DNA from: an uncultured Nitrososphaerota archaeon
Lineage (GTDB): Archaea > Thermoproteota > Nitrososphaeria > Nitrososphaerales > CADDZS01
NCBI GenBank assembly: GCA_963799845.1
Contig: CAWCYI010000004.1
Location: forward strand, 1,952,001 to 2,016,000
DNA length: 64,000 nt
Direction: 5' to 3'
Shown: piece after piece, positions 501 through 27,566 of the stretch
How the letters are laid out: each line of letters begins with the position of its first letter
Position numbering within the stretch: the first letter of the stretch is position 1
Notes under the pieces: model-generated
Seen by the model: only the letters and a program-made list of their open reading frames with translations
Told to the model about the DNA's origin: nothing
The model's database searches: none
Translations under genes and position numbers: made by a program

Positions 501-635
501 ATTTACGTAAATCCCGAGTGCCGAGATGTGGGACCCTCGCACGAATTTACTAGTAAAAGTGCCACTGCGTCTGTAAATCCGAAAATCGAGAACAGAGGGT
601 CAGAACCAAGATTCGGACACGAATTTGCTAGTAAG
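501..635 (-). repeat. Palindromic repeat family copy R1 (motif A + spacer + hairpin motif B)
   Basis: Reverse complement reads CTTACTAGCAAATTCGTGTCCGAATC...TTTTACTAGTAAATTCGTGCGAGGGTCCCACATCTCGGCACTCGGGATTTAC, matching 5751-5880. Confidence 0.9.
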
Positions 636-666
636 TCATCAGCATACAAAAGTGGTGAATAAGAGA

Positions 667-1410
667 TCATTTCCATCTCGTGAGTATCTCTTCCCTCTTG
701 AAAGTAGCTGTACTTAGGTAGAAGAGAAGCAGATCCGCTACTAGAAAAATGCCAGAAATGATAAGCAAGTTGGGTGTATTCAATTGAATTACGTCGATCT
801 CGGTGGCCACGTAAATTATGAGAAATGGAAAAAACAAGATCCCGGTGAATTGCTGTACAGTTCGCACATCACTTGCTCGCGCTGACAAAATAACTGTTAA
901 TTGGATAGTGAGTAAACTTGCGAGTGGTGCAAGCACGAGGAGAATTATTGCAAACATCCAATTGGGATAGTAAAGATATCCAAGCGCATCCCGAGTGATG
1001 ATGTCCATCAAGACCATGTAGATCACCGAGCTAATGTAGATCGAAGCAATGGGAGGGACGAATGAAGAGATGCTCTTTCCCAGTAGAATCTCGCTGTCTG
1101 ACATGGGAGTTGCAAGGAGAGGTTCGAGACTCTTTTCGATCTTCTCGCCGACTATGCTGTAAGAAGCGAGTCCACTTGGAAGAGAAGCTGCTCCAATGAC
1201 AAACCAAAAGGAAAATGCGTTCAGAAAAGGTGTAATGGACGCCGAGACTGTGTCTGCACTCGGATAGAAGTGTTGAATTGCAACAATAATCCCGGGGAAT
1301 CCGAAGGCTATTCCAAGCGGGAAAGCTATCGTGGCGTATATACTTCCCCTCCTGCTCTTGAAAGATTCAAAGTCCTTTGATGCGACTGACCAAGCGTTCT
1401 GCAAGTCCAA
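667..1410 (-). CDS. ABC-2 type transporter permease
   Basis: About 6 TM segments; GEKIEKSLEPLLATP motif; adjacent to an ABC ATPase. Confidence 0.9.
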   Translation of the reverse strand: MDLQNAWSVASKDFESFKSRRGSIYATIAFPLGIAFGFPGIIVAIQHFYPSADTVSASITPFLNAFSFWFVIGAASLPSGLASYSIVGEKIEKSLEPLLATPMSDSEILLGKSISSFVPPIASIYISSVIYMVLMDIITRDALGYLYYPNWMFAIILLVLAPLASLLTIQLTVILSARASDVRTVQQFTGILFFPFLIIYVATEIDVIQLNTPNLLIISGIFLVADLLLFYLSTATFKREEILTRWK

Positions 1411-1412
1411 TT

Positions 1413-2333
1413 CTATTCTGAGCTCCTGATCAAATTCAAATACACATCCTCAAGAGTCGAGCTTGCCTCTGTAACGTACTGGATGCGACCGCCCGCTGCC
1501 CCAATCGAGTTCACAATGTCAGGATTTTGTTTCTCGGGATCGCTAACCGTGATTATCAGCTTGTTTTCTGCTACCTCGACATTTGCAACTCCGAGTCTTT
1601 TGACCGCGGATATGATTGCATTGTTGACGGATTGAAGTTGAAAAACCGTCTTCCTTCCCAATATTGACTCTCTGAGCTTTTCCGGTGTTCCGACCGCTAT
1701 GAGTTTAGTTCTTAGTATGCCCACTCTATCGCAGATTCTTTCAGCCTCGTCAAGAAGATGAGTGTTAAGAAAGATTGTTTTTTTCTCTTTCTTGAGATCT
1801 AAGATGAAATCTCTCACTGTTTTCGAAGCTTCGGGATCCAAGTTTGCGGTGGGTTCGTCCAAGAAGAGAACTTTGGGATCGTGAATTAGTGCTCGAGCTA
1901 TCGCAAGTTTTTGCTTCATTCCCTTGGAGAATGTACCAGCCGGAAGATCCCTTTTCTCCCAAAGCTCCATTAGCTTTAGTAAATATTCTATCCTTTCTTT
2001 TCTCTTAATTTCGTCGACCTTGTAGTACCTGCCATAGAAATCCAGGTTCTTGTATGCGTTTAGTTCCTCGTAGAGACCGACGTTATCTGGAATCAGCCCG
2101 ATCATCCCTCTGATCTTTGGTTGATCCGCGCTGTTTCCAATGTCATAATCGCCTATCTTCGCGGTACCACTTGTCTTCGATATGAGGCATGCTAGCATTC
2201 GGATAGAAGTGGTCTTGCCAGCGCCATTGGGACCGAGAAACCCGAAAACTTCACCTTCGGCCACGTGAAGAGTGAGGTCATCGACAGCGGTGAGATCGCC
2301 AAATTTTCTCGTGAGGTTCTCCGCATCTATCAA
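1413..2333 (-). CDS. ABC transporter ATP-binding protein
   Basis: Walker A GPNGAGKT, signature FSKGMKQ, Walker B LFLDEP, H-loop. Confidence 0.95.
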   Translation of the reverse strand: MIDAENLTRKFGDLTAVDDLTLHVAEGEVFGFLGPNGAGKTTSIRMLACLISKTSGTAKIGDYDIGNSADQPKIRGMIGLIPDNVGLYEELNAYKNLDFYGRYYKVDEIKRKERIEYLLKLMELWEKRDLPAGTFSKGMKQKLAIARALIHDPKVLFLDEPTANLDPEASKTVRDFILDLKKEKKTIFLNTHLLDEAERICDRVGILRTKLIAVGTPEKLRESILGRKTVFQLQSVNNAIISAVKRLGVANVEVAENKLIITVSDPEKQNPDIVNSIGAAGGRIQYVTEASSTLEDVYLNLIRSSE

Positions 2334-2935
2334 TTAGGTAAGTCCACGAAGATAACCCATCGTTGGAAATATAAAGCGCCCGCAGCTGTACAATTCTTGT
2401 ACAATGGATTAGACCGATTCGCGGATCGGCAGGTCCTAATCGGGAATATCGTTTCACATTGAGCGCGGACGCGATTCTATCCCCAGAGGAAGTAAAGAGC
2501 ATCGCCCAAAGAGTGCTCGCGATTGAACGGATTTTTCTCAGAAGGGGAGGTTTGTTTGGCATACTTTGTTTAGGTGAGAATGATGTGAATTTCCGACAGT
2601 TTGTGCTTACTAGGTGACATGATCGACCGTATTAAAGGAACGTAAAGCCACAGCCAAGCACATGTACGCAGCAATAGACTTGCACCAAAAAACTGTACAG
2701 TCAGTACTCAAGGATGAAGGGGGAAGGATAGAAAACGAGCTGAAGATCAACAAGGATGCAAAAAGCATACTCGAATTTCTTGATGGTACTGATGCTGAAA
2801 TAGTCATGGAGTCTGGTTACAACCACGAACACATCTATGATCTTCTAAAGGAGGAAGGATACGATGTCAAGGTAGCTCATCCATTGATGGTTAAGGCGAT
2901 CGCATACGCAAAAGTGAAAAATGACAAGGTAGACG

Positions 2936-4883
2936 GCGCGCCAAGGAATCTCTATGACTCGTGGACGTAAGTTCCACTCTGGGAATCGCAGGTTTGCCCA
3001 GATAGATTGGGGCACAGCTAGCGGAGCAATTCGCTGGCTGGAGCTGTCCTCAAATCAAATCCTCAGGCCGCAGCGCAAGCGAACTCGATGTAGCACCGTG
3101 AGGTCGGAGTGGGAAGGCCTAGCAAGTCGTCACTCTGCGAAGGCTAGAACTGCATCATCAGGTGTAATGCCTGTAGCCTGCGAGCATGCAGCTTCCCCGG
3201 TGTTGCAGGGGTGGCATGAGGAGAAAGCCATGGAGCCTAACTTGGGAGACCGGGTAGTGTCCATAGATGCTCTAACAACTAGGGCATCTTTGGTAGTGCT
3301 GCCTATAAGCTCGTTGAGCGAAATGGCGGCCGAAGCGCTGCACGGAGTCGGAAAGGCTAGTAGTATTCATGAGGGTGAGGACAGCACAACCTCGCACGAG
3401 AGAAGGAGCCTTACTTGTGTGCGTGACTGCTCAAAGTTCATGGACGAGTCCATTCTTCGCAAGAAGTAAGAGGTTGAAAGCTCGTAATTTGAAGCCCGTC
3501 GAAGAACTTCGTAGCAGTCTTTACCGAACAGCTGAAGGAGAACAAGGAAAGGAGATTCTACAGTCTAAAAGATAAAATCTGTCGGATCGATGTTTTGGAA
3601 GAAGCTTGGAAAAGAGTCAGAGCAAACAAAGGTGTGGAAGGAATCGACAACGAGACAATCGAGGACATAGAAAGGAGAGGAGTTGATGAATTCCTCTCGC
3701 GGCTACAGCAAGAACTCAAGGACGAAACATACAAAGTTCAGTGCGTCAGGAGAGTTTTCATTCCCAAACCGAATGGGAAGAAAAGACCTCTTGGTATCCC
3801 AACTGTAAGGGACAGGGTAGTTCAACAGGCGGTCAGATTAATCATCGAGCCGATATTCGAAGCTGATTTCCAAGATTTCAGCTACGGATACAGATCGCAC
3901 AGGTCGGCAAGAGATGCAAGCTTGGCAATCTACAGGTGCCTAAACTTCGGTCTTACGAACGTCATCGATGTTGACATCGAAGCGTTCTTCGACCACATAG
4001 ACCATTCAAAACTAATCTCCTTTGTCAAGGAGCGAGTCACAGACGGATACATCATCAAACTCGTCAGGGAATGGCTCAGGGCAGGCGTCGTCTACATGGG
4101 TGAAACGACTTATCCGAATGAGGGGACTCCTCAGGGTGGAGTCATCTCGCCTCTTCTAGCCAACATCTATCTCAACAAACTCGACGCAGCATGGACGGAG
4201 CTGAAGATGAACAGCAGATACAAGTACAATTCTCAGCTCGTTAGATACGCCGATGACATTGTAATCTTCACAGACAGGAGTTATGCAGGAAACATCATGA
4301 GGTTTCTCTCGGAATTTCTTTCCTCATATCTTGGACTCGAGCTGCGCGAGGACAAATCCAGAATCACTACAGCAAAGGAAGGATTTGATTTCCTTGGATT
4401 TCACTTCTTGAGAAGATTTGAGTTCAGGAAGGGGAAGGAAGTAACCAGATTCTTCCCGTCCAAAGCTACCGTGCGAAAGTTCAGGGACAAGGTTAGGGAG
4501 CTAACTGCAAGGGGTGTCACTCACGTCAAGGATGAAAGGCAGCTAGCCAAGGAACTGAACTTGCTCATTGTAGGATGGACTAACTACTTCAACCACTCTA
4601 ATGCCTCAGAAACATACGGAGACTTGCAGCACTACGTCGAATGGAAGTTCAGGCAATTCATACGCTTCAAACATCAGATTCGCAGATTGTCAGCCAGATA
4701 TGATGGCTTCGATCAGCCCTCTCAATTTGGCTTGAAATCTCTAGCGGGTAGAATCTCGTACGTAACTTGGGAGCCGTACGCTCTTCGGTGAAGCACCTCG
4801 GTAAGCTGTGTGAGGGAAAACTTCACGCACAGTTTGATGTGGGAGGGGGAGGATTGAAAACAAAATCCTCTCTTTCACCCAAC
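2936..4883 (+). mobile_element. Group II intron (ribozyme plus RT/maturase ORF)
   Basis: 5' GCGCG (variant of GUGYG), 3' ...CCCAAC; domain V AAGCTGTGTGAGGGAAAACTTCACGCACAGTTT at about 4804-4836 followed by a domain VI hairpin; exact excision restores the transposase frame. Confidence 0.92.
3489..4791 (+). CDS. ltrA: Group II intron reverse transcriptase/maturase without endonuclease domain; N-terminus frameshifted at about 3534
   Basis: RPLGIPTVRDRVVQ, GTPQGGVISPLLANIYL, RYADD, GFDFLGF, domain X GWTNYF; upstream LRSSLYRTA|KENKERRFYSLKDKI joins if one base is removed. Confidence 0.92.
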
Positions 4884-5594
4884 CAAGGACACTTGCAGAT
4901 CTACTGAGACTGGACATGATACCGGAGTGCTACATCCCCAGCCAAGAGATAAGAGAAGTAAGAGACCTGGCAAGGAGGAGACATTATTTCGTCTCGACAA
5001 GAACGATGTTCAAAAACAAAATCCATGCAGAGCTCAGCAGGAGATGGATTGATTACAGTAAAGATCTCTTCACGCAGACTGGGATGGACCATCTAAAATC
5101 GCTTCATATCGCAGCGGTAAATGACTACCTCGACTCAATTCAGTTCCTCGATGAGAAGATACGAGAGCTTGACGGCCAAATCAAGGAAAAGCTCTTGGCG
5201 ACAAATATGCGAAGCTCCTTGTGACGGTGCCAGGAATATCCTACTACGGTGCGCTGCTGATTTCAAGCGAGATTGCAGACATCAACAGATTCCCAGACCC
5301 AGAACACCTGTGCTCCTATGCAAAACTGGCACCCGGAACTCATCAATCGGGAGAGACACAATACCAGAAAGCAGATCGTAACAAGGGCAATCACATGCTC
5401 AACTGGATATTGATCCAGTGTGCTCACATACACGTCCTAAACTGCAACTCGTCGATTACTGGGCATTACAACAGGATCAAGGAAACGAGGGGAAACAAGA
5501 TCGCCATCGTCGCAGCAGCAAGAAAACTGACGTGCGCAATCTACATGATGCTGAAGGAAGAAAGAGCCTTCAGGCTGGACGGCTAAAACCATAA

Positions 5595-5741
5595 ACTGGG
5601 CTCGAGAATTTACTGCATCTTCAGGATGCGTTTACTAGGATGAGCCAAAGGCAATAAGCGAAAGCCACAATGCTCTTTTGGAGCGAATGGGAGTATGCTC
5701 GTCCAGCATGACAAAAGAGATATTAAGAAATGTAGCCCAGT
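5595..5741 (+). ncRNA. Putative bridge RNA/seekRNA of the IS110 element
   Basis: Internal loop with GAATTTACT (5606-5614) and TTTACTAG (5631-5638) around stem GCATC/GATGC matches both strands of the target; second loop carries ATGGGAG (5687-5693), identical to the IS right end. Confidence 0.8.
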
Positions 5742-5750
5742 CGACATGGG

Positions 5751-5880
5751 AGTAAATACGTGTCCGAATCTCGTTACATGACCGAGCTATCATCTTGAAA
5801 ATTTGGAAATAGGGGTTGTATTTTTACTAGTAAATTCGTGCGGGGGTCCCACAACTCGCACTCGGGATTTACTAGTAAAA
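5751..5880 (+). repeat. Palindromic repeat copy R2 (its left part lies at 2606-2613, split off by the IS110)
   Basis: AGTAAATACGTGTCCGAATC...ACCGAGCTATCATCTTGAA...TTTTTACTAGTAAATTCGTGCGGGGGTCCCACAACTCGCACTCGGGATTTACTAGTAAAA. Confidence 0.9.
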
Positions 5881-6017
5881 ACTGAAGCCAAATGCTCAAA
5901 CTTACACAGCAGCTCCCATAACGTTAGCGCGTTCATTTGCTGGCACAATTTACTGGCATCTCGAGGCTCAATTTAACCAATAAATACCTTGAACATGCGT
6001 GAACGACGAGTGCGAAC

Positions 6018-6392
6018 GTGACAAATTCAAAACTCTCGTTCATACATGTCGGTTTACCCTTGGATCACCCATCTATCCCAATCGAAATTCAGAAGGAAGC
6101 GAGCGTGCAGCTCCCAAGGTTGCGCGACCGGATGCAAGCGGAAGGCTATGGATATGAGCTTGTGTTTGCTTCGCCCGAGGATGGCTTAGAGAACTTCAAG
6201 TCGCAGCTAGGGGCACGTGGACCGGATGGCGTCGTCATAGGCGGAGGAGTGGTAGGCAATCCTCAAATGCGCTTCTTCATGGAGCAGATCATTGATGTAA
6301 TACGAACCTCTGCACCTAAAAGCAAAATCCTTCTAATTGGCAGGCCAGAGGAAGCGCCAGCCGCTGTTGCGCGATGGTTCCCAAAGGCCTAG
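6018..6392 (+). CDS. Hypothetical alpha/beta protein
   Basis: Plausible ORF with a DGVVIGGGV Rossmann-like segment. Confidence 0.6.
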   Translation: MTNSKLSFIHVGLPLDHPSIPIEIQKEASVQLPRLRDRMQAEGYGYELVFASPEDGLENFKSQLGARGPDGVVIGGGVVGNPQMRFFMEQIIDVIRTSAPKSKILLIGRPEEAPAAVARWFPKA

Positions 6393-6507
6393 GTTGTTCC
6401 AAGTAATGCGAGACACCTGCGAGCGCACTTGATCTATCTCATCCTGAAACGCCCTAATCCTGCCACTCTTACTGTAGTCTTCTAGACCCAAACGGAAGGA
6501 GGTCTGA

Positions 6508-6963: not shown

Positions 6964-7001
6964 TGCCTGGAATCCTTAGATTTGCAAAAAAAAGAAAAAT
7001 C

Positions 7002-8403
7002 GTAACCGTTTAGCTTTTTGAAGCTGGATTTAGATAGTTCATGGCATAATCGTAAAAGTTCAATCCTCTCAGCCTGCACGTCTCTTTCACGCTCATCAAC
7101 ACTTTGTGTGCATCTGCTCCTTCCATCGATTGGTTGCCGTAGGTTATCTTTCTAATGACAACGCTTGGTCTTATTGCTCTCTCCGCTGTATTGTTGTTCC
7201 AGTCAACTCCAAGCTCTTCAAGGAACGTGAACAGCATTCCCTTCTCTCTTCTCAGACGCTTGACAAACCGCATGCAGTTTGTCTCATCCACGGTCGAATA
7301 CGATGCGTTAATTTTCTCGACCCTCGCTTCAAACCTCTTCTTGGCTCTTAGGCGATCCCTCTTTCCATTCACGCTCTTTCCAACTTTTATCGCGTCATTC
7401 AGTATGCGTTTGAGTTTCTTTGAAAACGGTGTGAATTCTTTTCCCGGTCTCTTATAGATCTGGGTGTCTTCTATATCACGGAGGTAGTGCAGAAGGCATC
7501 TCTGATGTTTTGTTCCAACGTAGTTCCATGCCGGCCATGAATCGCTTATCACGGTCCCAGCGTAGTCTCTACCAAGTACCTTTATGGGAACCTCGCTGCC
7601 TCGAGATCTTGCCACCTCGTAGATAACCGACCATTTGCCCACAAACGTCCAGAGCCAGTGGTTCTTTCCCTTGATCCTCCAGCTTGTTTCATCGCCATGC
7701 AGACTCTTTTCATTTCTCACTTCTGAGATGAGATCACTGTAACGCGGACCGAATGCTTCTGCAACCTTCATCACAGAGTGCTCCACCGAAGCCTCACTCA
7801 TCTCAAGATTGAAGATGAGCTTGAATAGTGAGGTGATTTTTGCGTACGACAGCCCCAGCAATTTGAGCGAAACTATAAGGAGCATCAGTCTGAGCCCGAA
7901 TCGCTCGTTGCTGAGGACATTGGGCACTTCAGGAGAGATCTGTCTCCTGCATCCGCAGCAATATCTCCTCTTAATTACGTATCTTGTTACAACCAATCTT
8001 GCGGGAACGACATCTTCGACAAATCTTTCGTATTTGTCTGTAGGTTTTTCTGAGAGGACTCCTCCGCATTTGGGGCATACAGTTTGATCCAGTTCCATCG
8101 TATGATCAACGTGGTCTGGCTTTCTTCTCGTCCCGCCTTCGTGACCTTTTCTTCTCCCAGATTTCTTGTGGTACTTTCTGTTATCGGAGGTGGTTGTAGT
8201 AAAGGTCGCGGGAGTGTCCTTCTTTGCGTTTATGCTCCTTGCAACAACTGCCCCAAGCGTTGTCTTGAGGGAGGCAAGCTCCTCCTTGAGCTGTTTATTC
8301 TCCTCCTTCAGGAGTCTGTTTTGTTCTTCAAGTTCATCGATTTGACTTTGGTAGTATTCGGGAAGATTACTTGGTTCATCGTCAATCGAAGACAAAGGCT
8401 TAC
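7002..8403 (-). mobile_element. IS66-family element, single-ORF (ISBst12-like)
   Basis: Ends GTAACCGTTTAGCT and reverse-complement GTAAGCCTTTGTCT (GTAA termini, 10/14 match); flanking 8-mers match only 5/8, so no clean TSD. Confidence 0.8.
7010..8395 (-). CDS. tnpC: IS66 transposase
   Basis: Coiled coil, CPKCG zinc finger, HGDETSW, ISD, QRCLLHYLR, NNNTAERAIRP. Confidence 0.93.
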   Translation of the reverse strand: MSSIDDEPSNLPEYYQSQIDELEEQNRLLKEENKQLKEELASLKTTLGAVVARSINAKKDTPATFTTTTSDNRKYHKKSGRRKGHEGGTRRKPDHVDHTMELDQTVCPKCGGVLSEKPTDKYERFVEDVVPARLVVTRYVIKRRYCCGCRRQISPEVPNVLSNERFGLRLMLLIVSLKLLGLSYAKITSLFKLIFNLEMSEASVEHSVMKVAEAFGPRYSDLISEVRNEKSLHGDETSWRIKGKNHWLWTFVGKWSVIYEVARSRGSEVPIKVLGRDYAGTVISDSWPAWNYVGTKHQRCLLHYLRDIEDTQIYKRPGKEFTPFSKKLKRILNDAIKVGKSVNGKRDRLRAKKRFEARVEKINASYSTVDETNCMRFVKRLRREKGMLFTFLEELGVDWNNNTAERAIRPSVVIRKITYGNQSMEGADAHKVLMSVKETCRLRGLNFYDYAMNYLNPASKS

Positions 8404-8508
8404 GGAAAGTTCAATGGAGAATCTTGGCCAAATAGCTTTCGGCCGATTACTTCAAAACGCTAAATGGATACGAAAAATCAATTCTGGGAGAGATGAAGGA
8501 AAGAGAAC

Positions 8509-8940
8509 ATGGCTAAGCGTATCTCGCGCGAGTCTGGAGCTAAAGGCGTAGATGACTATATTGCAAAATGTCCAAAAGACTTGCAGAGAAAACTAAAGAA
8601 GATCAGAGCGGCAATAAGACAGGTTGCGCGTGACGCTAATGAGACCACCAGTTACTTCGACATGCCAGGATGTTACTATCCCGGTTATGACTATAATGGA
8701 ATGTTCGCATGGTTCGGTCTCCAGAAATCATACGTTAGCCTCTTGCTGTGCCCTCCGACAATACAGACTTTTGAAAAACAACTCGCAGGCTACACTACAA
8801 CCAAAGCGGCTGTACACTTTCCATTGGATAGACCCGTACCTGTATCTCTGGTGAAAAAGTTGGTGAAGACAAGTTTGGCGTTAATGAAAACCAAGCCAAT
8901 GAAAGGTACCGTGAATCGAAAGCCAGCTCATGGGAGTTAA
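8509..8940 (+). CDS. DUF1801/YdhG-like protein
   Basis: VDDYIA...LKKIRAAIR...SY.MP...TTKAAVHFPLDRPVPVSLVKKLV. Confidence 0.8.
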   Translation: MAKRISRESGAKGVDDYIAKCPKDLQRKLKKIRAAIRQVARDANETTSYFDMPGCYYPGYDYNGMFAWFGLQKSYVSLLLCPPTIQTFEKQLAGYTTTKAAVHFPLDRPVPVSLVKKLVKTSLALMKTKPMKGTVNRKPAHGS

Positions 8941-8983
8941 GGGATCGGATGGAAGTCCTAGCCACCATAAACTTACCTCGGGA

Positions 8984-9028
8984 CACTCGGGCGTTAATTT
9001 TTACTAGTAAAGAGCGTAAATTTACGAG
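8984..9028 (+). repeat. Degenerate palindromic repeat copy R3
   Basis: CACTCGGG...TTTTTACTAGTAAA. Confidence 0.55.
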
Positions 9029-9262
9029 CTTTAGAAAAAACGCTTATTGAATTCCGAAGAAGCGGCAGTGAAAGGACACTCGGAATGTTTCTAATTCTTT
9101 TGAATCCGCGTGCTAGTTCACTTTTCGGATCGCACCGGATACGAGGTTTTCTGTGCTCGAATAACGCCCTTTGGTTTAGATTGGATTTTGATTTACTACT
9201 AAATTATACACATGAATCACTATTGCTCGCGAAATGCCAATCATCTCTCGTCCCCAAATTCT

Positions 9263-10989: not shown

Positions 10990-11064
10990 TGGTTAGTCAT
11001 ATACATAAATGAATTATTCATTTATCATATAAAGATTGATTCGAGTCGAGCCCAGAAATTCAAA

Positions 11065-11216
11065 TTTTACTAGTAAATTCGTGCGCGAATCCGTTACCTA
11101 ACCGAGCTATCATCTTGAAGAGTTACAATAGGGCTTGGATTTTTACTAGTAAATTGGTGCGGGGGTCCCACATTCCGCGCTTGGAATTATCTGTCGGTTG
11201 GTTTTTACTAGTAAAT
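11065..11216 (+). repeat. Palindromic repeat copy R4 (three TTTTACTAGTAAA cores)
   Basis: Colinear with R2, including the spacer ACCGAGCTATCATCTTGAA and GTGCGGGGGTCCCACA. Confidence 0.9.
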
Positions 11217-11895: not shown

Positions 11896-11897
11896 GT

Positions 11898-12488: not shown

Positions 12489-12672
12489 GATTTGCGATCA
12501 TATTCTCCTATTAGCAAGACGTGTTTTCCTCTCATCTACATATAACAGGGGACATAATTCTCAAAAATGAGAACGGCATTTCCGGGGCACCCACTAAAGT
12601 AATGATTGTTCTTCCGCGCAATGAAATCGATCACATTCGGGATTGATAAGAAATCATCTGAGTTTCGTTCTG

Positions 12673-12807
12673 TTAAGATTCATCGGATTTTTTCGGTAGA
12701 TTTATCAATTTTCGGCCTGTCAGGGTGCGTACTGCGACTACTACGACTATTACAATTACAGTAAGTACAACGATTAAGATGATTCTACTTTGGGGAATCG
12801 TCGTCAA
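12673..12807 (-). CDS. 44-aa single-TM microprotein (not in ORF track)
   Basis: TTG start preceded by AGGAGAATG; IILIVVLTVIVIVVVVAV. Confidence 0.4.
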   Translation of the reverse strand: MTTIPQSRIILIVVLTVIVIVVVVAVRTLTGRKLINLPKKSDES

Positions 12808-13066
12808 CTCACATTCTCCTATCTAACAGAACATATATTGATCAAAAATTGTATTCTAAAAAGAAGTTCTAAACGTACAAATTCTGTACCTTTGTGGACA
12901 ACGTAGAATCCAATAAATTCGTGCCAATTATGCCCTAATTTTACTTCTAAGGCGAGAATCAATCGAATTTACCCGACTCTTTGTCGACTAGCTTTTAATC
13001 AAAAACTGGAAAAGAGCCTGCGGTGGAAGCCGCATAGAGTCTGAGAAAAAGGCCGAGCGTCGTCGT

Positions 13067-14863
13067 GTGGAGCGCTTTCTCAATCGCAGTTATCTTGGAA
13101 AATGGGCCTTCATCGGTACGCTTATCGGACTCGTAGCGGGTTTTGGTGCTACAGTATTTTACTTTGCGATCCAAATAGTCTCCAACACGATGTTAGGCGG
13201 GATAACGGGGTTTTATCCTCCCAATCCCGTGGGAGAAGCGCCGGCTCCTATTTCAGTAAACCCGCATTTCTTGCTTATTCCAATTTCAACGGCTATCGGT
13301 GGATTGATCGCAGGGCTGCTAGTTTTTGGTTTGGCGCCCGAAGCGGAAGGGCATGGAACCGATGCTGCAATTGATGCATATCACAATAAGGGCGGTATCA
13401 TTCGGCGACGTGTTCCGATCATAAAGACGATTGCGTCAGCGTTCACAATAGGCAGTGGGGGAAGTGCGGGAAGGGAGGGCCCTACCGCGCAGATTGCTGC
13501 TGGCTTTGGTTCGATGATCGGAGAGATTTTTGGATTATCTGCTAAGGACAGGAGGATCGCTCTAGCTGCGGGAATTGGGGCAGGCATCGGATCGATTTTC
13601 AAATCTCCGTTTGGCGGAGCGATACTGAGTGCGGAAATTCTGTACAGCGGCGGCGACATCGAGGCAGAAACTTTGATTCCAGCTTTCATCGCAACCCCGA
13701 TAGGTTACGTCATTTTTGGGTCATTCACCGGATTCACTCCGATATTCGGGACTGGAATTACATACAATTTTACTCATCCTTTCAACCTGATTTTCTACGC
13801 GATACTCGGTGTACTTTGCGCAGGAGTGGGAAGGTTCTACACTTTGACCTTCTACACCGTCAAAAATTTTTTTGATGTGTCGAAGATTCCGAAGTACGTA
13901 AGACCGATGATCGGTGCAGCAATTTGCGGAATAATTGGAATTTTCTTTCCAGAGGTAATCGGGTTGGGTTACGGATTTTTGCAATTTGCTATTGACGGGA
14001 ACTTTAGTTCGATTACAACCAACTACGTTGCATTACCAGTCATCCTCGTTTTGCTGCTCGTCGTATTCTTGAAAATTTTTGCTACTTCTTTCACGGTGGG
14101 TTCTGGAGGAAGTGGAGGAGTGTTCGCTCCCTCTCTCGCAATTGGGGGATTCCTAGGCGCAGCTATGTGGATGGTTGTTCAGAATTTCTTTCCGAATCTT
14201 ATTCCAATCCCAGCTCCTCTTGTCATCGTCGGAATGATGGCTCTCTTTGCAGGAGTAGGCCGAGTTCCCATCGCCGTAATTCTAATGGTCAGCGAAATGA
14301 CAGGTAACCTATCGCTGCTGGCTCCTTCGATGATTGCAGTTGTGACCTCATACTATTTGACTGGCTCAAAATACACCATTTATCACAGCCAGGTCGAGAC
14401 GAGGGCGGACTCACCCGCACACATGGGAGAGTACAATGTTCCGCTGATGACTAGGATATTTGTTTCCGAGGCTATGAACAAGGATGTACAGAGTCTGAAC
14501 GAAGATGATTCTGTTCAAAGAGCTAATCAGCTGATTCTTGAAAAAGGCTTCAAGGGAATTCCTATAGTATCCAAAGAAGGGAAAGTTACGGGCATGGTCA
14601 CGCTGAAAGATGTGGAACGCATCCCAAGAGAAAAATCTGCTTCAACAAAACTTGCAGAAATAATGACTCAAAACGTCATATCGGTCGGACAGAACGAAAC
14701 ACTCCTTGATGCTATGAGGAAAATGACGATAAATGAAGTGGGTCAGCTTCCCGTTGTCGACAAATCGACTGGAGCACTTTTAGGAATAATAAGCCGGACC
14801 GATCTTTTGCGAGCTTACGATAAAAGAATCTCCGTCGATGATGAATCGACTGCTCGTAAATGA
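13067..14863 (+). CDS. ClC chloride channel or H+/Cl- antiporter with CBS pair
   Basis: GSAGREGP, GGVFAP, many TMs, two C-terminal CBS domains. Confidence 0.93.
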   Translation: MERFLNRSYLGKWAFIGTLIGLVAGFGATVFYFAIQIVSNTMLGGITGFYPPNPVGEAPAPISVNPHFLLIPISTAIGGLIAGLLVFGLAPEAEGHGTDAAIDAYHNKGGIIRRRVPIIKTIASAFTIGSGGSAGREGPTAQIAAGFGSMIGEIFGLSAKDRRIALAAGIGAGIGSIFKSPFGGAILSAEILYSGGDIEAETLIPAFIATPIGYVIFGSFTGFTPIFGTGITYNFTHPFNLIFYAILGVLCAGVGRFYTLTFYTVKNFFDVSKIPKYVRPMIGAAICGIIGIFFPEVIGLGYGFLQFAIDGNFSSITTNYVALPVILVLLLVVFLKIFATSFTVGSGGSGGVFAPSLAIGGFLGAAMWMVVQNFFPNLIPIPAPLVIVGMMALFAGVGRVPIAVILMVSEMTGNLSLLAPSMIAVVTSYYLTGSKYTIYHSQVETRADSPAHMGEYNVPLMTRIFVSEAMNKDVQSLNEDDSVQRANQLILEKGFKGIPIVSKEGKVTGMVTLKDVERIPREKSASTKLAEIMTQNVISVGQNETLLDAMRKMTINEVGQLPVVDKSTGALLGIISRTDLLRAYDKRISVDDESTARK

Positions 14864-14979
14864 GATTAAAATGGCAACATGCTGGAGGGCTGATGTCAAC
14901 TTGCGAACCTTATGATTCCGTCCGAGCTCGGGGATACGGTTTTGAATAATAGAAACTAGCAGGTCGTACAGAAGCCAAC

Positions 14980-17487
14980 TTGGGTAGTATCACTCCTTCC
15001 GAGGGGAAGGATCTTCCTGTCGCAGAACTGCTCAAGAGACTTGCAACGACCGAAAAGGGGCTCTCCTCTTCAGAAGCAGTCAAAAGGCTCCAGCAATATG
15101 GAGCGAACGAGATAGTTGAAAAGAAGCGCTCCGCGATACTCATTTTCCTACGCTATTTTTGGGGACCCATTCCCTGGATGATAGAAGCGGCAGCGATCAT
15201 CTCGGCATTCTTGCAGAACTGGGACGACCTAGTTATCATCACCGCGCTCTTGGTGGTAAATGTCATTGTTAGGACGTGGCAGGAGAACAAGGCCAGCAAT
15301 GCAATCGAGCTGCTGAAACAGAGGCTTGCCCTTAGGGCGAAAGTACTGCGGGATGGAAAGTGGGCTGATCTTCCTGCAAAAGAGCTCGTTCCCGGAGATA
15401 TAGTACGTCTACGCCTCGGGAATATTGTTCCCGCAGACACAAAGCTTGTTGACGGTACATATCTTCAGATCGACGAATCAGCTTTAACCGGAGAATCTCT
15501 GCCCGTGGAGAAGCATCCGGGCGATGTTGCCTTCTCATCCTCTATTGTTCGACAGGGTGAGATGAACGCTCTTGTGGTTACGACGGGGATGAACACCTAC
15601 TTTGGACGGACCACCAAGCTGGTTGAGGAAGCTCAAACAAAAAGCCATTTCCAAGGAGCGGTGGTGAAGATCGGTGACTATCTTATCGCGCTTGCCGCAG
15701 TCATGGTAACGATAACGTCAATCGTCGGTCTCATCCGTCAGCAGGGACCTCTCGAAATCCTTCAGTTCGGACTCGTCCTGATCATTGCAGCAATCCCGGC
15801 GGCGATGCCGGCCGTCCTCTCTGTTTGCATGACGGTGGGAGCATCGGCATTAGCGAAGAAAGATGCCATAGTCAGCAAGCTGGTTGCCATAGACGAGATG
15901 GCGGGCGTGGATATTCTATGCGCGGACAAGACAGGCACTATCACGAAGAACGCGCTTACTGTAAGCGAAACGAAGACCTTCAAAAAATATACGGAAAACG
16001 ATATCCTGCTTTTTGCAACCCTTGCCTCAAGGGAGGAAGACAACGATCCTATCGACGACACGATCATAATGAAAGCCAAGAGATTGAACGAGATGCCCGC
16101 GTCGATAGCAAGTTACAAAGTTTCGTCCTTCAAGCCGTTCGACCCCGTGTCAAAACGAACGGAGGCCACGGTGGAAGGCAAAGACGGCAATGTCTTTCAG
16201 ATTACAAAGGGAGCACCCCAAGTGGTTTTGTCTCTCGTCCATGACAAAGACATCGAGGGAGTCGTGAACGAGGATGTCAACAGCTTCGCCGAGAAGGGAT
16301 ATCGCGCCCTAGGTGTGGCAAGAACCGACGGCGAGAAGAACTGGCAATTTGTCGGGCTTATAGCGCTCTCCGATCCCCCGCGGGAAGATTCGGCCGCCAC
16401 GATAAAGACTGCACAATCGATGGGAATAGATGTGAAAATGGTCACAGGCGACCACATGGCCATAGCCAAGGAAGTCTCACAGCAAGTGGGGCTGGGAACA
16501 AATATTGTCACATCGTCGTCTATCCTAGACAAATCAGACAGTGAAGCAGAATCAGTGGTAGAGAAAGCCGATGGTTTCGCGGAGGTTTTTCCAGAGCACA
16601 AGTATCGCATCGTCGACCTTCTGCAGAAGAAAGGGCACATCGTCTGCATGACCGGGGACGGCGTCAACGATGCTCCCGCCCTAAAGAAGGCTGATTGCGG
16701 GATAGCAGTGGCCGGGGCTACTGACGCTGCAAAGTCTGCCGCTGCCGTAGTCTTGACGAAGCCCGGTCTCTCCGTGATCATCGATGCCGTGACGGGGAGT
16801 CGGGAGATATTCCAGCGAATGACTAACTATACGATCTATCGCATTAACGAAACATTCCGGGTACTATTCTTCATTTCACTTTCAATCATCGTGTTCAAGC
16901 TCTACCCGGTCACTGCGTTGATGATTGTTCTACTTGCTCTCCTCAACGACATGCCTATCATGACGATAGCCTATGACAATGTCAAGATCTCCCAAAAGCC
17001 AGAGAAGTGGAACATGCGTACATTGTTGGGAATCTCATCATTTCTGGGAATTATCGGGACAGCATCGTCCTTCGGAATGCTCATTATCGGGCTTGAAGTT
17101 CTGCACTTGAATCCGCTGGTTCTCCAGTCGTTCATATATCTCAAGCTGTCCGTGGCGGGGCACCTTGCGCTGTTTGTGGCTCGGACAAAGGGACCATTTT
17201 GGTCTGTGAAACCTTCAAGATCGTTGCTCCTCGCTGTCATATTGACTCAGCTGACGGCGACACTGATCACAGTTTATGGCATTCTTTTGCCCGCCATGGG
17301 GTGGGAGCTATCAGCAATTGTCTGGGGATACGCATTGGCATTCTTTTTTGTTCAAGATTTCCTCAAGGTTCGATTCTACAAGTTACTTAATCACGAAGGA
17401 GGATTCTTTCAAATGAAGAAAATTGAATTACAATTGAGTTCTCAGCTTATGGGAATTCATTTCTTTCTGAGGAATTTCTTCAGATGA
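14980..17487 (+). CDS. Plasma-membrane proton-efflux P-type ATPase (type IIIA)
   Basis: TGES, IPAAMP, DKTGT, PFDPVSKRT, MTGDGVNDAPALKKA, ALLND. Confidence 0.93.
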   Translation: MGSITPSEGKDLPVAELLKRLATTEKGLSSSEAVKRLQQYGANEIVEKKRSAILIFLRYFWGPIPWMIEAAAIISAFLQNWDDLVIITALLVVNVIVRTWQENKASNAIELLKQRLALRAKVLRDGKWADLPAKELVPGDIVRLRLGNIVPADTKLVDGTYLQIDESALTGESLPVEKHPGDVAFSSSIVRQGEMNALVVTTGMNTYFGRTTKLVEEAQTKSHFQGAVVKIGDYLIALAAVMVTITSIVGLIRQQGPLEILQFGLVLIIAAIPAAMPAVLSVCMTVGASALAKKDAIVSKLVAIDEMAGVDILCADKTGTITKNALTVSETKTFKKYTENDILLFATLASREEDNDPIDDTIIMKAKRLNEMPASIASYKVSSFKPFDPVSKRTEATVEGKDGNVFQITKGAPQVVLSLVHDKDIEGVVNEDVNSFAEKGYRALGVARTDGEKNWQFVGLIALSDPPREDSAATIKTAQSMGIDVKMVTGDHMAIAKEVSQQVGLGTNIVTSSSILDKSDSEAESVVEKADGFAEVFPEHKYRIVDLLQKKGHIVCMTGDGVNDAPALKKADCGIAVAGATDAAKSAAAVVLTKPGLSVIIDAVTGSREIFQRMTNYTIYRINETFRVLFFISLSIIVFKLYPVTALMIVLLALLNDMPIMTIAYDNVKISQKPEKWNMRTLLGISSFLGIIGTASSFGMLIIGLEVLHLNPLVLQSFIYLKLSVAGHLALFVARTKGPFWSVKPSRSLLLAVILTQLTATLITVYGILLPAMGWELSAIVWGYALAFFFVQDFLKVRFYKLLNHEGGFFQMKKIELQLSSQLMGIHFFLRNFFR

Positions 17488-17606
17488 CCAAGCACCCTCC
17501 AACTAGAGAATCCTTCGCTCGGGACCGACTATCCCAACTATAACCTGTGACCAGAGAGCTGAAGTGTCAGCACCTCGAAGAAGCGACTCAAAGAGGCTCC
17601 GGGATG

Positions 17607-17855
17607 TTAGCAGTCAGTCGACCATCCCCACTTATCTGTTTGAACGCTGAGAAAATTGGTAGTTGCGTGAACTTCCCCAAAACCGAATACTTGGCACGAT
17701 AATGAGACTGTCGCATTTACACCAACTAATCCGAAATAATTCACATTAGTTACCTGAACGATAGGAACAAGAAAAAAGAATCCAAGAAGTAAAATAAAAA
17801 CTCCAGCAATCGCAATATTTCTTGCGGCATGAGATTTTGGCTTTGGGGTGTCCAT
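17607..17855 (-). CDS. Small membrane-anchored protein
   Basis: TM followed by FFLVPIV...SLSCQVFGFG; resembles the ORFs at about 62.1 and 62.6 kb. Confidence 0.55.
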   Translation of the reverse strand: MDTPKPKSHAARNIAIAGVFILLLGFFFLVPIVQVTNVNYFGLVGVNATVSLSCQVFGFGEVHATTNFLSVQTDKWGWSTDC

Positions 17856-17986
17856 TACTCCCAGCTTAGATTTACACTATGAACAGTCCTTTCGCAATAA
17901 AGAATTTTCCATCCCTGATCGCCAGAAAATTGAATGTCACAGCAGGCTGTATATTCATAACCGATTTTAGATACCTGCCATAACAG

Positions 17987-18154
17987 TTGAACTCGGACGT
18001 TAGAAATGGTCTAGTGCTTATTCTGCTATCGGTCGTCATTTACATCTTAGACCGTGAGTATTTTGCATTTCTCAGTGCCGTATTATTTTTGGTTGGAATA
18101 ATGTTCATGATCGGCGGTTTTTGGCAAAACTCTGGAAAAAAGCGAACTTCCTGA
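17987..18154 (+). CDS. 55-aa two-TM microprotein (not in ORF track)
   Basis: TTG start with AT-rich TATA-like element about 30 bp upstream; two hydrophobic segments and a basic tail. Confidence 0.45.
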   Translation: MNSDVRNGLVLILLSVVIYILDREYFAFLSAVLFLVGIMFMIGGFWQNSGKKRTS

Positions 18155-18312
18155 CTGTTCCTGTCAGTCTATTAATTATTTTTAAGACGCTCAGTTGTCG
18201 CTTTCGAAGGTTAATGATTCGGAGGCTTAAGAGAGGAATATTCCGTTATCATTCTTGATAATTGTATTCGTACCTTAAGTAACAACATACGCCTTCGTCA
18301 CGATGAACAGAA

Positions 18313-18837
18313 TTGATGGTCGATTCTACCGAAAAAGCAGGAACAAAACGTGCAATAGTAATCTTCACTAGCAGATATGGTAACACGGAAAAGGTCGCGA
18401 GATCCTTTGAAAGGGGACTCGAAGAAGCAGGTATTGAAACCGTTTGTGTCAATGCAATCGACGCGCCAGTCGATTCGCTAACAGAGTTCGATCTGATTTG
18501 TTTAGGTGCTCCGACGGAGTGGCACTCGGCTTCAAAACCAATGAAAGCTTTTCTTGAAAATCTCAAGAACGTTGATCTTAATGGAAAGTTTGGCTTCGCC
18601 TTCGATACGAGATTTGAGGCCCCTCTCTCCGGAAGTGCAGCGAAGGGGATTGAAAAGGAACTTGACCGTTGCGGTCTGGAGATGATCGCTCCCCGCGAAT
18701 CAGCCCTTATCCTCGGCAGACAGAAGGGCGAAAAGGGGAATGTGAAACTAAAGGATGGAGAAGATGAACGATTTGAGCAGATCGGCCATCAGGTTGGAAC
18801 CATGCTTGCGGCAAAGGAAAAGACGATCCCGGCATGA
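18313..18837 (+). CDS. Flavodoxin family protein
   Basis: FTSRYGNTEKVA, LGAPT, FAFDTR. Confidence 0.88.
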   Translation: MMVDSTEKAGTKRAIVIFTSRYGNTEKVARSFERGLEEAGIETVCVNAIDAPVDSLTEFDLICLGAPTEWHSASKPMKAFLENLKNVDLNGKFGFAFDTRFEAPLSGSAAKGIEKELDRCGLEMIAPRESALILGRQKGEKGNVKLKDGEDERFEQIGHQVGTMLAAKEKTIPA

Positions 18838-19637
18838 TTAAAGAACAGGTCACGAGTACCGAAGCTGCAGACTCAGCTTGGGGAGAGCTTTACGAAATCG
18901 GCGGATATGCCGCCCTAATGGCTCTCGCGGTCGTATTGATCGAGGGTCTCATAGTCGTTATCATCCAAGATGTCTGGTTGCATTCGGGGCAGTTCGGCGC
19001 GAGTTTCGGTGACCAACCCAGCACAGTAATTGGGTGGTTCGAGCTGTTTCAGAGTAATCGACTCATCGGACTCCTCGACGATGCTATCCTGGACATTGCC
19101 GTTGTCGCCCTACTGGGCCCGGTGTTTCTTGCCCTCTTTGCCGCGCTGAGGCGAACCAATCAATCTTGGATGGTAGTCGCAACACCCCTTGCGTTCGCAG
19201 GCATAGCAGCTTACGTAGCAACTAATACGAGCCTCTCTTTACTTTACGTCAGCGACCAATATGCAGCTGCAACAACGGAGGCACAGAAGTCTCTCCTGCT
19301 TGCAGCTGGTCAGGCGACAATTGCTGTGGGCGGGGGCGGCCTGTTTTGGAGTACAGGATTCATTTTAGTGGCGGTTGCGGGACTGATCGTCGCAGCAGTC
19401 ATGCGCAGAGGCAAGCTCTTCGGCATAGCAACCGCTTGGGTGGGAATCCTCGCAAATGGATTATTTCTAGTCAATTACATCGCCTCCGTCTTTGTGTCAG
19501 CTACATCCAATGTGTCAACAATCCTCGTCGGTTGTGCCACGATTTTGATGTTCGTCTGGTGGATCCTGATTGCGAGAAAGTTATTCCAGCTTGGGCGAAA
19601 CGCCCCGATGGTAACCGAAACAGATCCAAGAATTTAG
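18834..19637 (+). CDS. DUF4386-like multi-pass membrane protein
   Basis: About 6 TMs; WFELFQSN..IGL, LS.QYAAATTEAQ. Confidence 0.6.
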   Translation: MIKEQVTSTEAADSAWGELYEIGGYAALMALAVVLIEGLIVVIIQDVWLHSGQFGASFGDQPSTVIGWFELFQSNRLIGLLDDAILDIAVVALLGPVFLALFAALRRTNQSWMVVATPLAFAGIAAYVATNTSLSLLYVSDQYAAATTEAQKSLLLAAGQATIAVGGGGLFWSTGFILVAVAGLIVAAVMRRGKLFGIATAWVGILANGLFLVNYIASVFVSATSNVSTILVGCATILMFVWWILIARKLFQLGRNAPMVTETDPRI

Positions 19638-19721
19638 AACGTGCGCCAGTCCCTATCAGGGGGATTTCCGCTTCCTAACCGACATGGAACGTGAAGTCCA
19701 TTTCTTGTTTCACTTGTATTA

Positions 19722-19767
19722 TGCTAGTAAATTCGTGCGGGGTCTCCATCTCGCACTCGGGATTTAC
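19722..19767 (+). repeat. Palindromic repeat copy R5 (motif B)
   Basis: TGCTAGTAAATTCGTGCGGGGTCTCCATCTCGCACTCGGGATTTAC. Confidence 0.85.
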
Positions 19768-19969
19768 CGCTTTTCTTGTTCGAACCCCGTTCGGAACCGA
19801 CGATTTCGCTAGATGCTTTGTTTCTCTTATTATTTGCCTAAACCAATATTCTGACAAGAGCTCAAGTTCGCCGATCTTGTGGAATATCTGAGGGTTCAAA
19901 GTCCGTTGGATATATCCTGATTTCGGTTCGACTTTGTTCTTCACTTACGAGAAGCTCGCTGATAATTAA

Positions 19970-20459
19970 CTATGCAGTATTACTGGGTTGTTTAATGGGG
20001 AAGAACTTTCTGTAAGGTAGGAGCAAACCAACAACCAGGATTGCGGCGATCATGATAGAACCATAGTCCACGTATCTAAGAACACGATAGTCATTTGCAA
20101 AATCCAGAAGGAAGAGCACGGGCACAAACCCACGTCAAGTACCATGCCCACACCTCACCATTCCTATAAGCCGTCGCTGAAACAATCATGATGAAGGCCC
20201 CGAGGCCCGCGCTGAAGATCGCAAGGATCGTGATTAGATAGTAAATGTAATTGGCTACACCTGGACTCGACACGGCTAGCTGAGAAAATGGGGCGCCAGT
20301 CAGGGTCTCGACGGCATTTTCCGCGCCAGTGAGGATTCCAGGAGATAGGATTGTGGCGGACATGGAGAGCAGGAAGAATAGACCCATCACGAATGGAATT
20401 ATCCACGCATACTTTTCATACGCTTTCTCCCTTCGAATTACAGCCATGAAACTTAGCAA
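19970..20459 (-). pseudogene. Membrane protein, frameshifted at about 20130
   Basis: AYRNGEVWAWY continues in another frame as LFLLDF...LLLPYRKFFP. Confidence 0.55.
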
Positions 20460-20491
20460 CTGATGATCGTTATTTTATCCTTTGGCAAGAT

Positions 20492-21037
20492 TTGCCGCGA
20501 CAAAGGGACTGCTTAAAGCCGAGAGCCATTAGCTTCGTAGTAATGCCAAGTGAAGGAATAGAATCCATCAACGAAGAGAACGCGCATTTGGTTGTACCCA
20601 AAATAAAAATGGGTGCGATATGTCAGATTGGAATCGTTGTCAGGGATTTGCAAAAGGCGGTGGACAATTATTGGGAGAAATTGGGAATCGGCCCTTGGAT
20701 GACAGTCAGAATCGAGCCACCGCTCCTCAGGGATGTGAGCTTGCGGGGGAAACCCGTTGAGGCCTCAATGATGGCGGCAATTGCACAGAGTGGTAGCATC
20801 CAGCTGGAACTGATACAGCCCCTTGAAGGCCCAAACATCTGGAAGGAGTTCCTGGAGGAACGGGGTGGGGGCCTCCATCACGTCCAGTCGCTTGATCAGG
20901 ACGCTAATGCGGCGCTCGCCACGTTTAGAGAAATGGGAGTCGACGTGCTCATGAGTGGCAGGATTGGTGACAACATATTCTACTACATGGATACTGAGCC
21001 GCTTCTGGGAACCATCTATGAGTTCATAGGACACTGA
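20492..21037 (+). CDS. VOC family (methylmalonyl-CoA epimerase/glyoxalase-like) protein
   Basis: QIGIVVRDL, LGIGPW, QLELIQPLEG, EFLEERGGGLHHV. Confidence 0.88.
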   Translation: MPRQRDCLKPRAISFVVMPSEGIESINEENAHLVVPKIKMGAICQIGIVVRDLQKAVDNYWEKLGIGPWMTVRIEPPLLRDVSLRGKPVEASMMAAIAQSGSIQLELIQPLEGPNIWKEFLEERGGGLHHVQSLDQDANAALATFREMGVDVLMSGRIGDNIFYYMDTEPLLGTIYEFIGH

Positions 21038-21163
21038 TTTGCGAGGGTTATGATCGAATCTAGGGCGACTCGCATGTAACCTAGAATACGCCAAGATCTT
21101 TTGGGGTAACAAAGGCCTATCTCCATTAAGGAGAGCTTCCTAGAGGTATGCGGGTTTGCCAAC

Positions 21164-21212
21164 GGGGTTGCATTTTTACTAGTAAATTCGTGCGGGGGTC
21201 CCACCCTCCGCA
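21164..21212 (+). repeat. Palindromic repeat copy R6, 3'-truncated, just upstream of the integrase
   Basis: GGGGTTGCATTTTTACTAGTAAATTCGTGCGGGGGTCCCAC, nearly identical to 5812-5852. Confidence 0.9.
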
Positions 21213-27550: not shown

Positions 27551-27566
27551 TGAATGGGAATATAGA

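Follow-up and report, generated by a model that had tools for sequence, protein, structure and literature searches.

Palindromic repeats with a tRNA-like core as candidate attachment sites and as targets of an IS110-family element in an uncultured Nitrososphaerota archaeon

Integrons have an integrase of the IntI type, an attI site and Pc, and their attC sites carry R and L boxes (AAC/GTT) and combine conserved folding with variable sequence. In streptococci, accretion of cis-mobilizable elements (CIMEs) and integrative and conjugative elements (ICEs) places integrase-less elements bounded by attachment (att) sites next to an integrative element. Insertion sequences (IS) of the IS110 family have repetitive extragenic palindromes (REPs) as natural targets. 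In Thaumarchaeota, short att cores and tRNA targets are reported in PMC6563490, and tRNA fragments are described as integration scars in PMC9897764. In this study, we analyzed a stretch of 64,000 nt (the window) from an uncultured Nitrososphaerota archaeon of the order Nitrososphaerales (assembly GCA_963799845.1, contig CAWCYI010000004.1, positions 1,952,001 to 2,016,000 of the forward strand). The window holds copies of a palindromic repeat, the last of which lies just upstream of an integrase gene.

The repeat was compared with these systems. The duplicated att sites of archaeal tRNA genes (attL and attR, and arrays of re-used sites) resemble it in having a core from the tRNA 3' end, an adjoining integrase and co-oriented repeats around accessory DNA. 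Here, however, there are 55 copies in the genome, most of them far from a tRNA gene or an integrase. Two types of unit, A and B, are joined by a spacer into composites, the B cores have diverged from every tRNA found in the genome, and a conserved flanking palindrome is present that no tRNA supplies. By analogy, the units appear to work most like multiplied, orphaned tRNA-derived att sites with an added palindromic arm, which an IS110-family element exploits as REPs are exploited.

Copies, layout and distribution of the repeat

The palindrome TTTACTAGTAAA was searched for with at most one mismatch. Nine matches were found in the window, eight of them exact, against 0.12 expected, and none of 100 shuffled sequences reached nine. 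The whole genome is a metagenome-assembled genome (MAG) with 9 contigs totalling 4.6 Mb, a completeness of 87% and a contamination of 4.9%; loci outside the window are given below by contig (C1, C3 and so on) and position. It contains 40 exact palindromes, about 0.4 being expected by calculation from base composition. A profile for nhmmer was built from 13 full genomic copies, longer stretches were then aligned, and the genome search gave 55 distinct units at E<=1e-3. A preliminary description of this DNA had placed copies at six places in the window, built from the palindrome plus TTCGTG. Reading of the sequence at each place, together with nhmmer and alignment, confirmed copies with these parts at all six, and its position 2606 was correctly set, being the left half of a palindrome split by an IS110 element. 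Its statement that no copy lies to the right of the array also stands, as palindrome, repeat and profile searches found none past 21213, and the final copy does lack its right arm and lie 60 nt ahead of the open reading frame (ORF) 21274-22554. Across the genome, the units number 55 rather than six, and they are clustered rather than evenly spread.

As shown in Table 1, the copies belong to two unit types. The B unit has the layout TTTTTACTAGTAAAT - TCGTGCGGGGGTCCCAC ATCTCGC A - CTCGGG - ATTTACTAGTAAAA and measures 57-65 nt in its full form; in a long form, the right palindrome lies about 17 nt further outward. The A unit begins with the shared palindrome, which is followed by (A/T)CGTG(C/T)(G/C)CGAATCCCGT(T)ACC... 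Composites of A, a spacer of about 50 nt and B were found at 501-636 (minus strand), 5753-5883, 11063-11216 and seven further aligned loci, and the direct order B then A also occurs. The B loops fall into the classes GTGCGGGGGTCCCAC and GGGGTTCAAATCCCAC, with intermediates such as GTGCTCAAATCCCAT. Units with only a left or only a right half are common. The hairpin drawn earlier for the B motif is real as a fold, the unit at 5819-5883 giving -16.1 kcal/mol as single-stranded DNA (z = -7.0), but it consists chiefly of pairing between the two palindromic arms, and covariation is weak. Across 18 full copies the inner stem was 79% paired, and 18 to 39 of 500 shuffles equalled the observed covariation measures. 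Mean column identity was 72%, no AAC/GTT boxes were present, and an Rfam search matched no family to the units, its sole find being a group II intron.

Outside the ORFs of a crude calling, which cover 80% of the genome, lie 41 of the 55 units. By hand count of the unit table, 24 units stand between convergent, 8 between divergent and 23 between tandem genes, five copies sharing one spacer. Another copy was found within 30 kb for 49 of the 55 units, while in 500 random placements the average was 27 and the highest value 40. Neighbouring copies were co-oriented in 34 of 37 cases (p = 1e-7), and one run, at C6:900-947 kb, has 11 copies. Polarity linked to replication was considered and rejected, since orientation switches too often along C4 and C6. 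The families enriched among 219 neighbour ORFs were cyclase-TPR proteins (17), ABC ATPases (9) and IS110 (9), and no dedicated recombinase recurred beside the units in this set. The large paralogous family of adenylate/guanylate cyclases with TPR, the most frequent neighbour, is also represented in the window at 41900-43702 and 44102-46609.

The unit was present in four of six same-genus and four of five sister-genus genomes, in two other genomes of the species collection (Thaumarchaeota; Nitrososphaerales archaeon) and in 15 metagenome contigs. Among 28 other genomes of the order, one weak match of 24 nt was the only find, and two scans of viral contigs gave no match. A relative that carries the unit is grouped with the 'heterotrophic terrestrial Thaumarchaeota' in PMC10640624; by word counts, the main text of that paper does not contain the words repeat, mobile, transposase or integrase.

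The tRNA-like core and homology breaks within it

Comparison with tRNA genes of the genome and with tRNA patterns showed that the unit core copies the final 18-28 nt of tRNA genes, a stretch that reaches from the T-loop to the acceptor end. A-unit cores hold CGAATCCCGTACCTCGCA, which matches the 3' terminus of the C7:113855-113947 tRNA exactly over 17-18 nt. B cores fit the tRNA-Leu/Ser 3' pattern ..GGGGTTCGTGGGTTC(A/G)AATCCCAC + 7 nt + A (TTCGTG..CCCAC + 7 nt + A) with a different acceptor. Identity with a tRNA 3' end, a mark of att sites, was thus exact in A units and lay in the tRNA-Leu/Ser pattern in B units. A complementary 5' acceptor strand within 260 nt was absent for all units and present for real tRNAs. 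The units are therefore 3' fragments, and whole tRNA genes or split tRNA halves were ruled out.

Some observations on the tRNA genes themselves are recorded here. Nearly all tRNA genes of the genome bear introns: ARAGORN found 9 without an intron search and 35 candidates with one, 29 of them of 300 nt or less, and an Rfam search found only 12 tRNAs, all of 66-141 nt. The intron of the tRNA-Ser at C6:376385-376551 contains a hairpin, ACTAGTAA..10 nt..TTACTAGT, with the same word as the palindrome. This gene is the only one of 29 candidates with ACTAGT, and it is followed downstream, after 2.4 kb with two cyclase/TPR genes, by a diverged A+B composite. Another repeat, AATCCCAT GAGATGA A, occurs at nine loci (C4:738557 and C6:598234 among them) in identical settings, with its reverse complement exactly 96 nt upstream, and may be a further tRNA-like or IS-end family.

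The flanks of the 55 units were compared with each other. The comparison gave 25 homologous pairs, which comprise five overlapping neighbours, one C7/C8 duplicate of 100% identity and 19 others. In all 19 non-trivial pairs, the homology was one-sided. At three places the exchange point lay inside the shared core, as is seen at att sites. The left flank of C4:1372043 is 99% identical to that of C7:22260 through the A unit's GAATCCCGT and different thereafter, and the last copy in the window (21172-21213) diverges after GGTCCCAC. The third is metagenome contig L078, which follows the left flank of the C4:1743k unit (94% identity) up to TTCGTGCGCGAATCCC. Past this point it matches the window, running from the right part of the A unit through spacer and B unit into the flank 11216-11267, while the genome at C4:1743k continues as a B-type right half. 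Such a junction is the pattern of a crossover within the 16-nt core. Loop class and right-arm class could be assigned for 21 of the 55 units and occurred in every combination: v1/Ra in 9, v1/Rb in 4, v2/Ra in 4 and v2/Rb in 4, two of the last being the C7/C8 duplicate. Two homology breaks lie instead at a palindrome, one between window position 19767 and C6:900486 and one at the left end of 5747-6437 compared with C6:1747335.

Compared with the genome studied here, G002 has one gene located between two units in the opposite orientation; the homology covers the gene alone, and the breakpoints of this inversion therefore cannot be placed. Logan contigs over 8500-24500 break at units, with joint sides of 20-30 nt that cross-map between units or to the C7 paralogue, and these contigs are unable to reveal circles.

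The one-sided flanks bear on a passive explanation, in which the unit would be a regulatory or terminator module. Its palindrome would be the site of a dimeric protein, a bidirectional oligo-T terminator or both, and it would have spread only by duplication of adjacent genes. Since all 19 pairs are one-sided, the units were not simply co-duplicated with both neighbours. The conserved tRNA-like core of 30 nt would be needless for a terminator or an operator, and the recombinant contig L078 and the co-orientation would be left unexplained. The module does have points in its favour: TTTTTACTAGTAAAAA gives T-runs on both strands, spacers between convergent genes are preferred, and members of a membrane-protein gene family (window 18834-19637 and its paralogues) repeatedly have a unit just downstream. 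PMC10640624 further reports that related soil lineages have expanded through gene duplication. On balance, we consider this explanation distinctly improbable. Elsewhere in the window, 11311-12009 and 11898-12488 encode DUF1254 and DUF1214, usually one protein, as two overlapping ORFs, and may represent a frameshifted gene.

The IS110-family element and the integrase

In this study, we found that an IS110-family element targets the palindrome at its midpoint, TTTACT^AGTAAA, with the core CT/AG. The element at 2614-5752 has PF01548 and PF02371, matches the NCBIfam entry IS110 family RNA-guided transposase and has a constant insertion point. Its flanks read ..TTACTAG | IS | TAAA.. in all three full copies and in one partial copy on C1, and AG (CT on the other strand) is present at both junctions. 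In G004, a genome of the same genus, the unit orthologous to that at 19723 bears the same IS in reversed direction at TTTTTACT|CCCATG. The transposase gene of the window copy is interrupted by an intron matching the Rfam D1-D4 and D5/D6 group II models; an intron-less copy at C6:903701-904902 (99-100% identity) sets the insertion point of this intron between 2935 and 4884. The non-coding right end of the IS, 5587-5752 (166 nt), holds ATTTACTG and GTTTACTAGG, which match the two halves of the palindrome at which the IS inserts; a bridge RNA could use them as guide segments.

A second IS110 family is not inserted at the palindrome. It has four copies of about 1545 nt (C4:1234362, C6:928296, C6:960040 and C6:1073169), and its left end begins GAATCCCC. 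One copy has a unit 35 nt past its right end, and two left flanks end in ..GTGC or ..GTGCGCC, resembling the A-unit core. The window also carries an IS66-family element at 6975-8479 with its transposase at 7010-8395. Three more copies of 99-100% identity lie on C6, remoter ones have 73%, and the window copy splits a block that is contiguous at C6:1747335-1748218.

The repeated entry of one IS into short palindromes raises the alternative of a non-autonomous element resembling miniature inverted-repeat transposable elements (MITEs) or REPs. The unit of 57-80 nt, or the A+B composite of about 135-160 nt, would then have been moved whole by a palindrome-recognising transposase, the tRNA likeness would be mere ancestry, and the integrase and IS110 would have landed in the element. 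Several features agree with this: the unit forms a hairpin and ends in inverted-repeat arms of 14 nt, subfamilies have shared extensions, the units are targeted by IS110, and in the sister genus they stand among ordinary genes. The intergenic location and the preference for gene 3' ends (41 of 55 outside ORFs; 24 convergent against 8 divergent) point the same way. However, no target-site duplication is visible at full copies, no pair of empty and filled sites was seen in the comparisons made, which were few and involved fragmentary assemblies, and no transposase recurs among the neighbour ORFs. The two Y1 transposase genes (PF01797; C4:750843 and C6:729242) have no unit alongside, the nearest on C4 being about 15 kb away. 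Core-broken half-units and strong local co-orientation are also unexpected from transposition, and we regard such an element as unlikely. The preliminary description had itself proposed an archaeal REP or bacterial interspersed mosaic element (BIME). In behaviour the comparison holds, since the units lie between genes, with a preference for gene 3' ends, and, like the REP/BIME sites to which IS110-family bridge-RNA recombinases home, are entered repeatedly at one position. It does not extend to a linked gene for a REP-associated tyrosine transposase (RAYT, Y1). In contrast to REP/BIME families, the copies here are far fewer, the host is archaeal, and the unit is longer, with a tRNA-like core and breakpoints in that core.

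ORF 21274-22554 gave only a non-significant Pfam match (E=0.07). It has 514 homologues, many with PF00589, which are named as site-specific integrases of Nitrosopumilus or Nitrososphaerales, and the five residues listed in Table 1 are invariant in an alignment of 28 sequences. Profile matches were found to archaeal XerA (5hxy, E=5.5e-6) and to a PHROG integrase (E=5e-9); in NCBIfam, recomb_XerA_Arch was the only match, at 42.5 bits against a cut-off of 220. These matches assign the ORF to a thaumarchaeal family of tyrosine recombinases. In five of nine loci examined, two of these five being in the unpublished genome G001, a tRNA 3' end lies 40-150 nt upstream of the integrase homologue. Paralogues in the genome studied here lie directly downstream of the 3' ends of tRNA-Ala on C3 and of a tRNA on C8, the C8 paralogue occupying C8:6583-7767. 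In the window, the place of the tRNA is held by a half-unit ending CCCACCCTCCGCA, in which the left half of a B unit passes, beyond the T-stem, into an acceptor end like that of tRNA-Leu (TTTTTACTAGTAAATTCGTGCGGGGGTCCCAC|CCTCCGCA).

The DNA from 21214 to about 38.8 kb has raised G+C and is probably a cryptic integrated element. No close orthologue of its integrase was found in 12 genomes of the family, which nevertheless carry units, and the element is therefore taken as a recent arrival. The preliminary description had listed, as its third option, an integrase-bearing element integrated into one copy of the repeat. This is the best supported of its three options, fitting the tRNA-adjacent integrase family and the half-unit in the position of the tRNA. 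Inside the putative element, a 2211-aa ORF (32140-38775) contains repeats of about 300 nt at intervals of 591-594 nt, and it matched no Pfam, NCBIfam or PHROG family. Elsewhere, segments C7:8850-14310 and C8:2310-7767 (about 5 kb) are near-identical but lie in opposite orientations, each with a unit and an integrase. The C8 segment has a full-length integrase by an intact tRNA and the C7 segment a fragmentary integrase by a tRNA 3' fragment; the pair reflects either a true duplication or an artefact of assembly.

The array ending at an integrase had also suggested an integron-like platform for gene capture, with folded units as attC-like sites, the blocks between them as cassettes and the 21274 integrase as its own recombinase. 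As in an integron, co-oriented units with real hairpin potential lie downstream of genes and bracket small blocks, the integrase stands at one end of the window's array, and single genes occur between a right-half and a left-half unit, for example at C7:24683 and C7:26233. However, the integrase is of the XerA type, with tRNA-adjacent thaumarchaeal homologues, and is not like IntI; no search for attI or Pc was made. It lacks a close orthologue in the 12 unit-bearing genomes, and the 55 units are dispersed over many islands, mostly without an integrase nearby. The units conserve sequence rather than structure, with 72% identity, weak covariation and neither R/L nor AAC/GTT boxes, and their breakpoints lie in the core or loop and not at the base of the hairpin. 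Gene orientation is mixed, whereas an integron would be expected to have co-oriented, mostly promoterless cassettes, and the blocks hold one to several genes plus IS elements; the mixed orientation had already been counted against a classical integron in the preliminary description. The integron reading is not supported by these data, and we judge it very unlikely.

Table 1. Repeat units, IS element and integrase-bearing element in the window
Feature	Position	Strand	Basis
B unit, nearly full: palindrome, core TTCGTGCGAGGGTCCCAC ATCTCGGCA, degraded right palindrome	501..559	-	nhmmer model positions 5-64, E=4e-14; alignment
A unit: palindrome-like TTACTAGCAAAT + TCGTGTCCGAATC; composite A + spacer + B with 501-559	610..636	-	weak nhmmer match, E=0.07; composite alignment
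Left half of A-unit palindrome (..TTACTAG), parted from right half by IS110	2600..2613	+	flanks of three IS110 copies compared
IS110-family IS at palindrome centre; transposase pieces 2662-2970 and 4916-5586; group II intron ~2936-4883 with RT/maturase 3595-4791	2614..5752	+	PF01548, PF02371, RVT_1, GIIM; NCBIfam; Rfam
Right portion of split A unit (TAAATACGTGTCCGAATCTCGTTAC..)	5753..5790	+	sequence, alignment, IS110 flanks
B unit, complete in the short form with a palindrome on either side of the core; best copy of the window	5819..5883	+	nhmmer E=2e-20; hairpin z=-7
Remnant ..CACTCGGGCGTTAATTTTTACTAGTAAAG, right-arm-like, with one exact palindrome; 1-mismatch palindrome at 9192-9203	8995..9030	+	palindrome search, sequence
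A unit: palindrome + TTCGTGCGCGAATCCGTTACC	11063..11092	+	nhmmer E=1e-4; alignment
B unit, long form; right palindrome ~17 nt further out, 11204-11215	11139..11216	+	nhmmer, alignment
B unit, both palindromes truncated; same-genus orthologous unit bears IS110 at left palindrome	19723..19767	+	nhmmer, flank comparison
Left half of B unit up to GGTCCCAC, then a tRNA-like acceptor end of another kind (CCTCCGCA)	21172..21213	+	nhmmer, sequence
Tyrosine recombinase (integrase) by homology; R148, H278, R281, H303, Y311	21274..22554	+	homologues, invariant columns, profile matches
Probable cryptic integrated element: integrase, ParB-methylase, methylase, TFIIB-like protein, 2211-aa repeat protein; G+C 0.50-0.53	21214..38800	+	composition, protein families

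Possible orphan attachment sites and gene shuffling

We consider it an evenly balanced question whether the repeats are lineage-specific orphan attachment-site modules that mimic tRNA and are used in trans by integrases. Each unit has a tRNA-end core preceded, and often followed, by the palindrome, and such tRNA ends are the sequence beside which the tRNA-targeting tyrosine integrases of these archaea occur. Integrases encoded by integrated elements, such as that of 21274-22554, would act in trans, with the T-arm-like core as the site of recombination. Successive rounds of integration, accretion and exchange would lead to co-oriented arrays, half-units and mosaic accessory islands. Separately, the IS110-family element inserts at the palindrome centre, as shown above. 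We infer both the catalysis of the exchanges by integrases and a role of the palindrome for these enzymes. CIME/ICE accretion offers a parallel, with recombinase-free blocks between att-like repeats placed in tandem with an element whose integrase could act in trans. The streptococcal arrays, however, lie at one chromosomal att site, whereas the units here occupy many islands and have palindromic arms of their own.

Several observations weigh against the use of the units as attachment sites. The commonest B core (GTGCGGGGGTCCCAC) has no T-loop, and the palindrome is left unexplained by a tRNA origin. About six genes of the integrase family are present in the genome, and most arrays have none nearby; in the sister genus, units flank ordinary metabolic genes without a recombinase. 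The right-hand att copy of the window's element was not found by a repeat search, three 20-nt patterns or a profile at maximal sensitivity. The preliminary description had proposed to look for the missing right arm at the far end of the element; nothing convincing was found beyond 21213, the best profile match being at 59451-59469 (E=0.41), and direct repeats at both ends, as expected of an integrase-bearing element, were not seen for this one. Duplicated blocks without unit boundaries also occur, namely 9285-10960 and 12976-17443 compared with C7 and 20171-21139 compared with C4:1364k. A flavodoxin/membrane-protein block of genome G003 stands in another context without a unit. The shuffling of blocks exactly at the repeats, which the preliminary description had looked to related genomes for, was not seen: in relatives, the blocks of 1-20 kb lie on different contigs, and G003:C147, the one contig examined in detail, has no unit at its junctions. 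In addition, the mosaic units could have arisen by gene conversion between repeats, and, because the genome is a MAG, some of the paralogues may be strain variants.

A stronger form of the attachment-site reading is that the chromosomes of non-ammonia-oxidising soil Thaumarchaeota hold a system that shuffles genes, with the units as its active sites. Acting in trans, tRNA-targeting integrases would use the tRNA-mimicking modules (palindrome - core - palindrome) to capture, excise, duplicate and re-sort single genes or small blocks. We regard this as improbable. If true, such a system would be the archaeal equivalent, in function, of integron cassettes or accretion arrays, and it would drive the expansion by duplication that PMC10640624 reports for genomes of related lineages.

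Beyond the preliminary description, this study adds that the core mimics a tRNA 3' end and that an IS110-family element homes to the palindrome. The family thereby joins two known things, the integration scars left as tRNA fragments and the REP-like targets of IS110. It provides a multi-copy, self-contained tRNA-mimic site with palindromic arms that is conserved in two genera of an uncultured family of soil archaea, and its units are located at the meeting points of paralogous and strain-specific segments. Without integrase action on the units, this would be an ordinary, though new, family of repeats. With such action in trans, the units would offer a concrete, testable mechanism of gene shuffling and duplication in large soil archaeal genomes, and an archaeal IS110 recombinase would at the same time have a natural set of targets in them.

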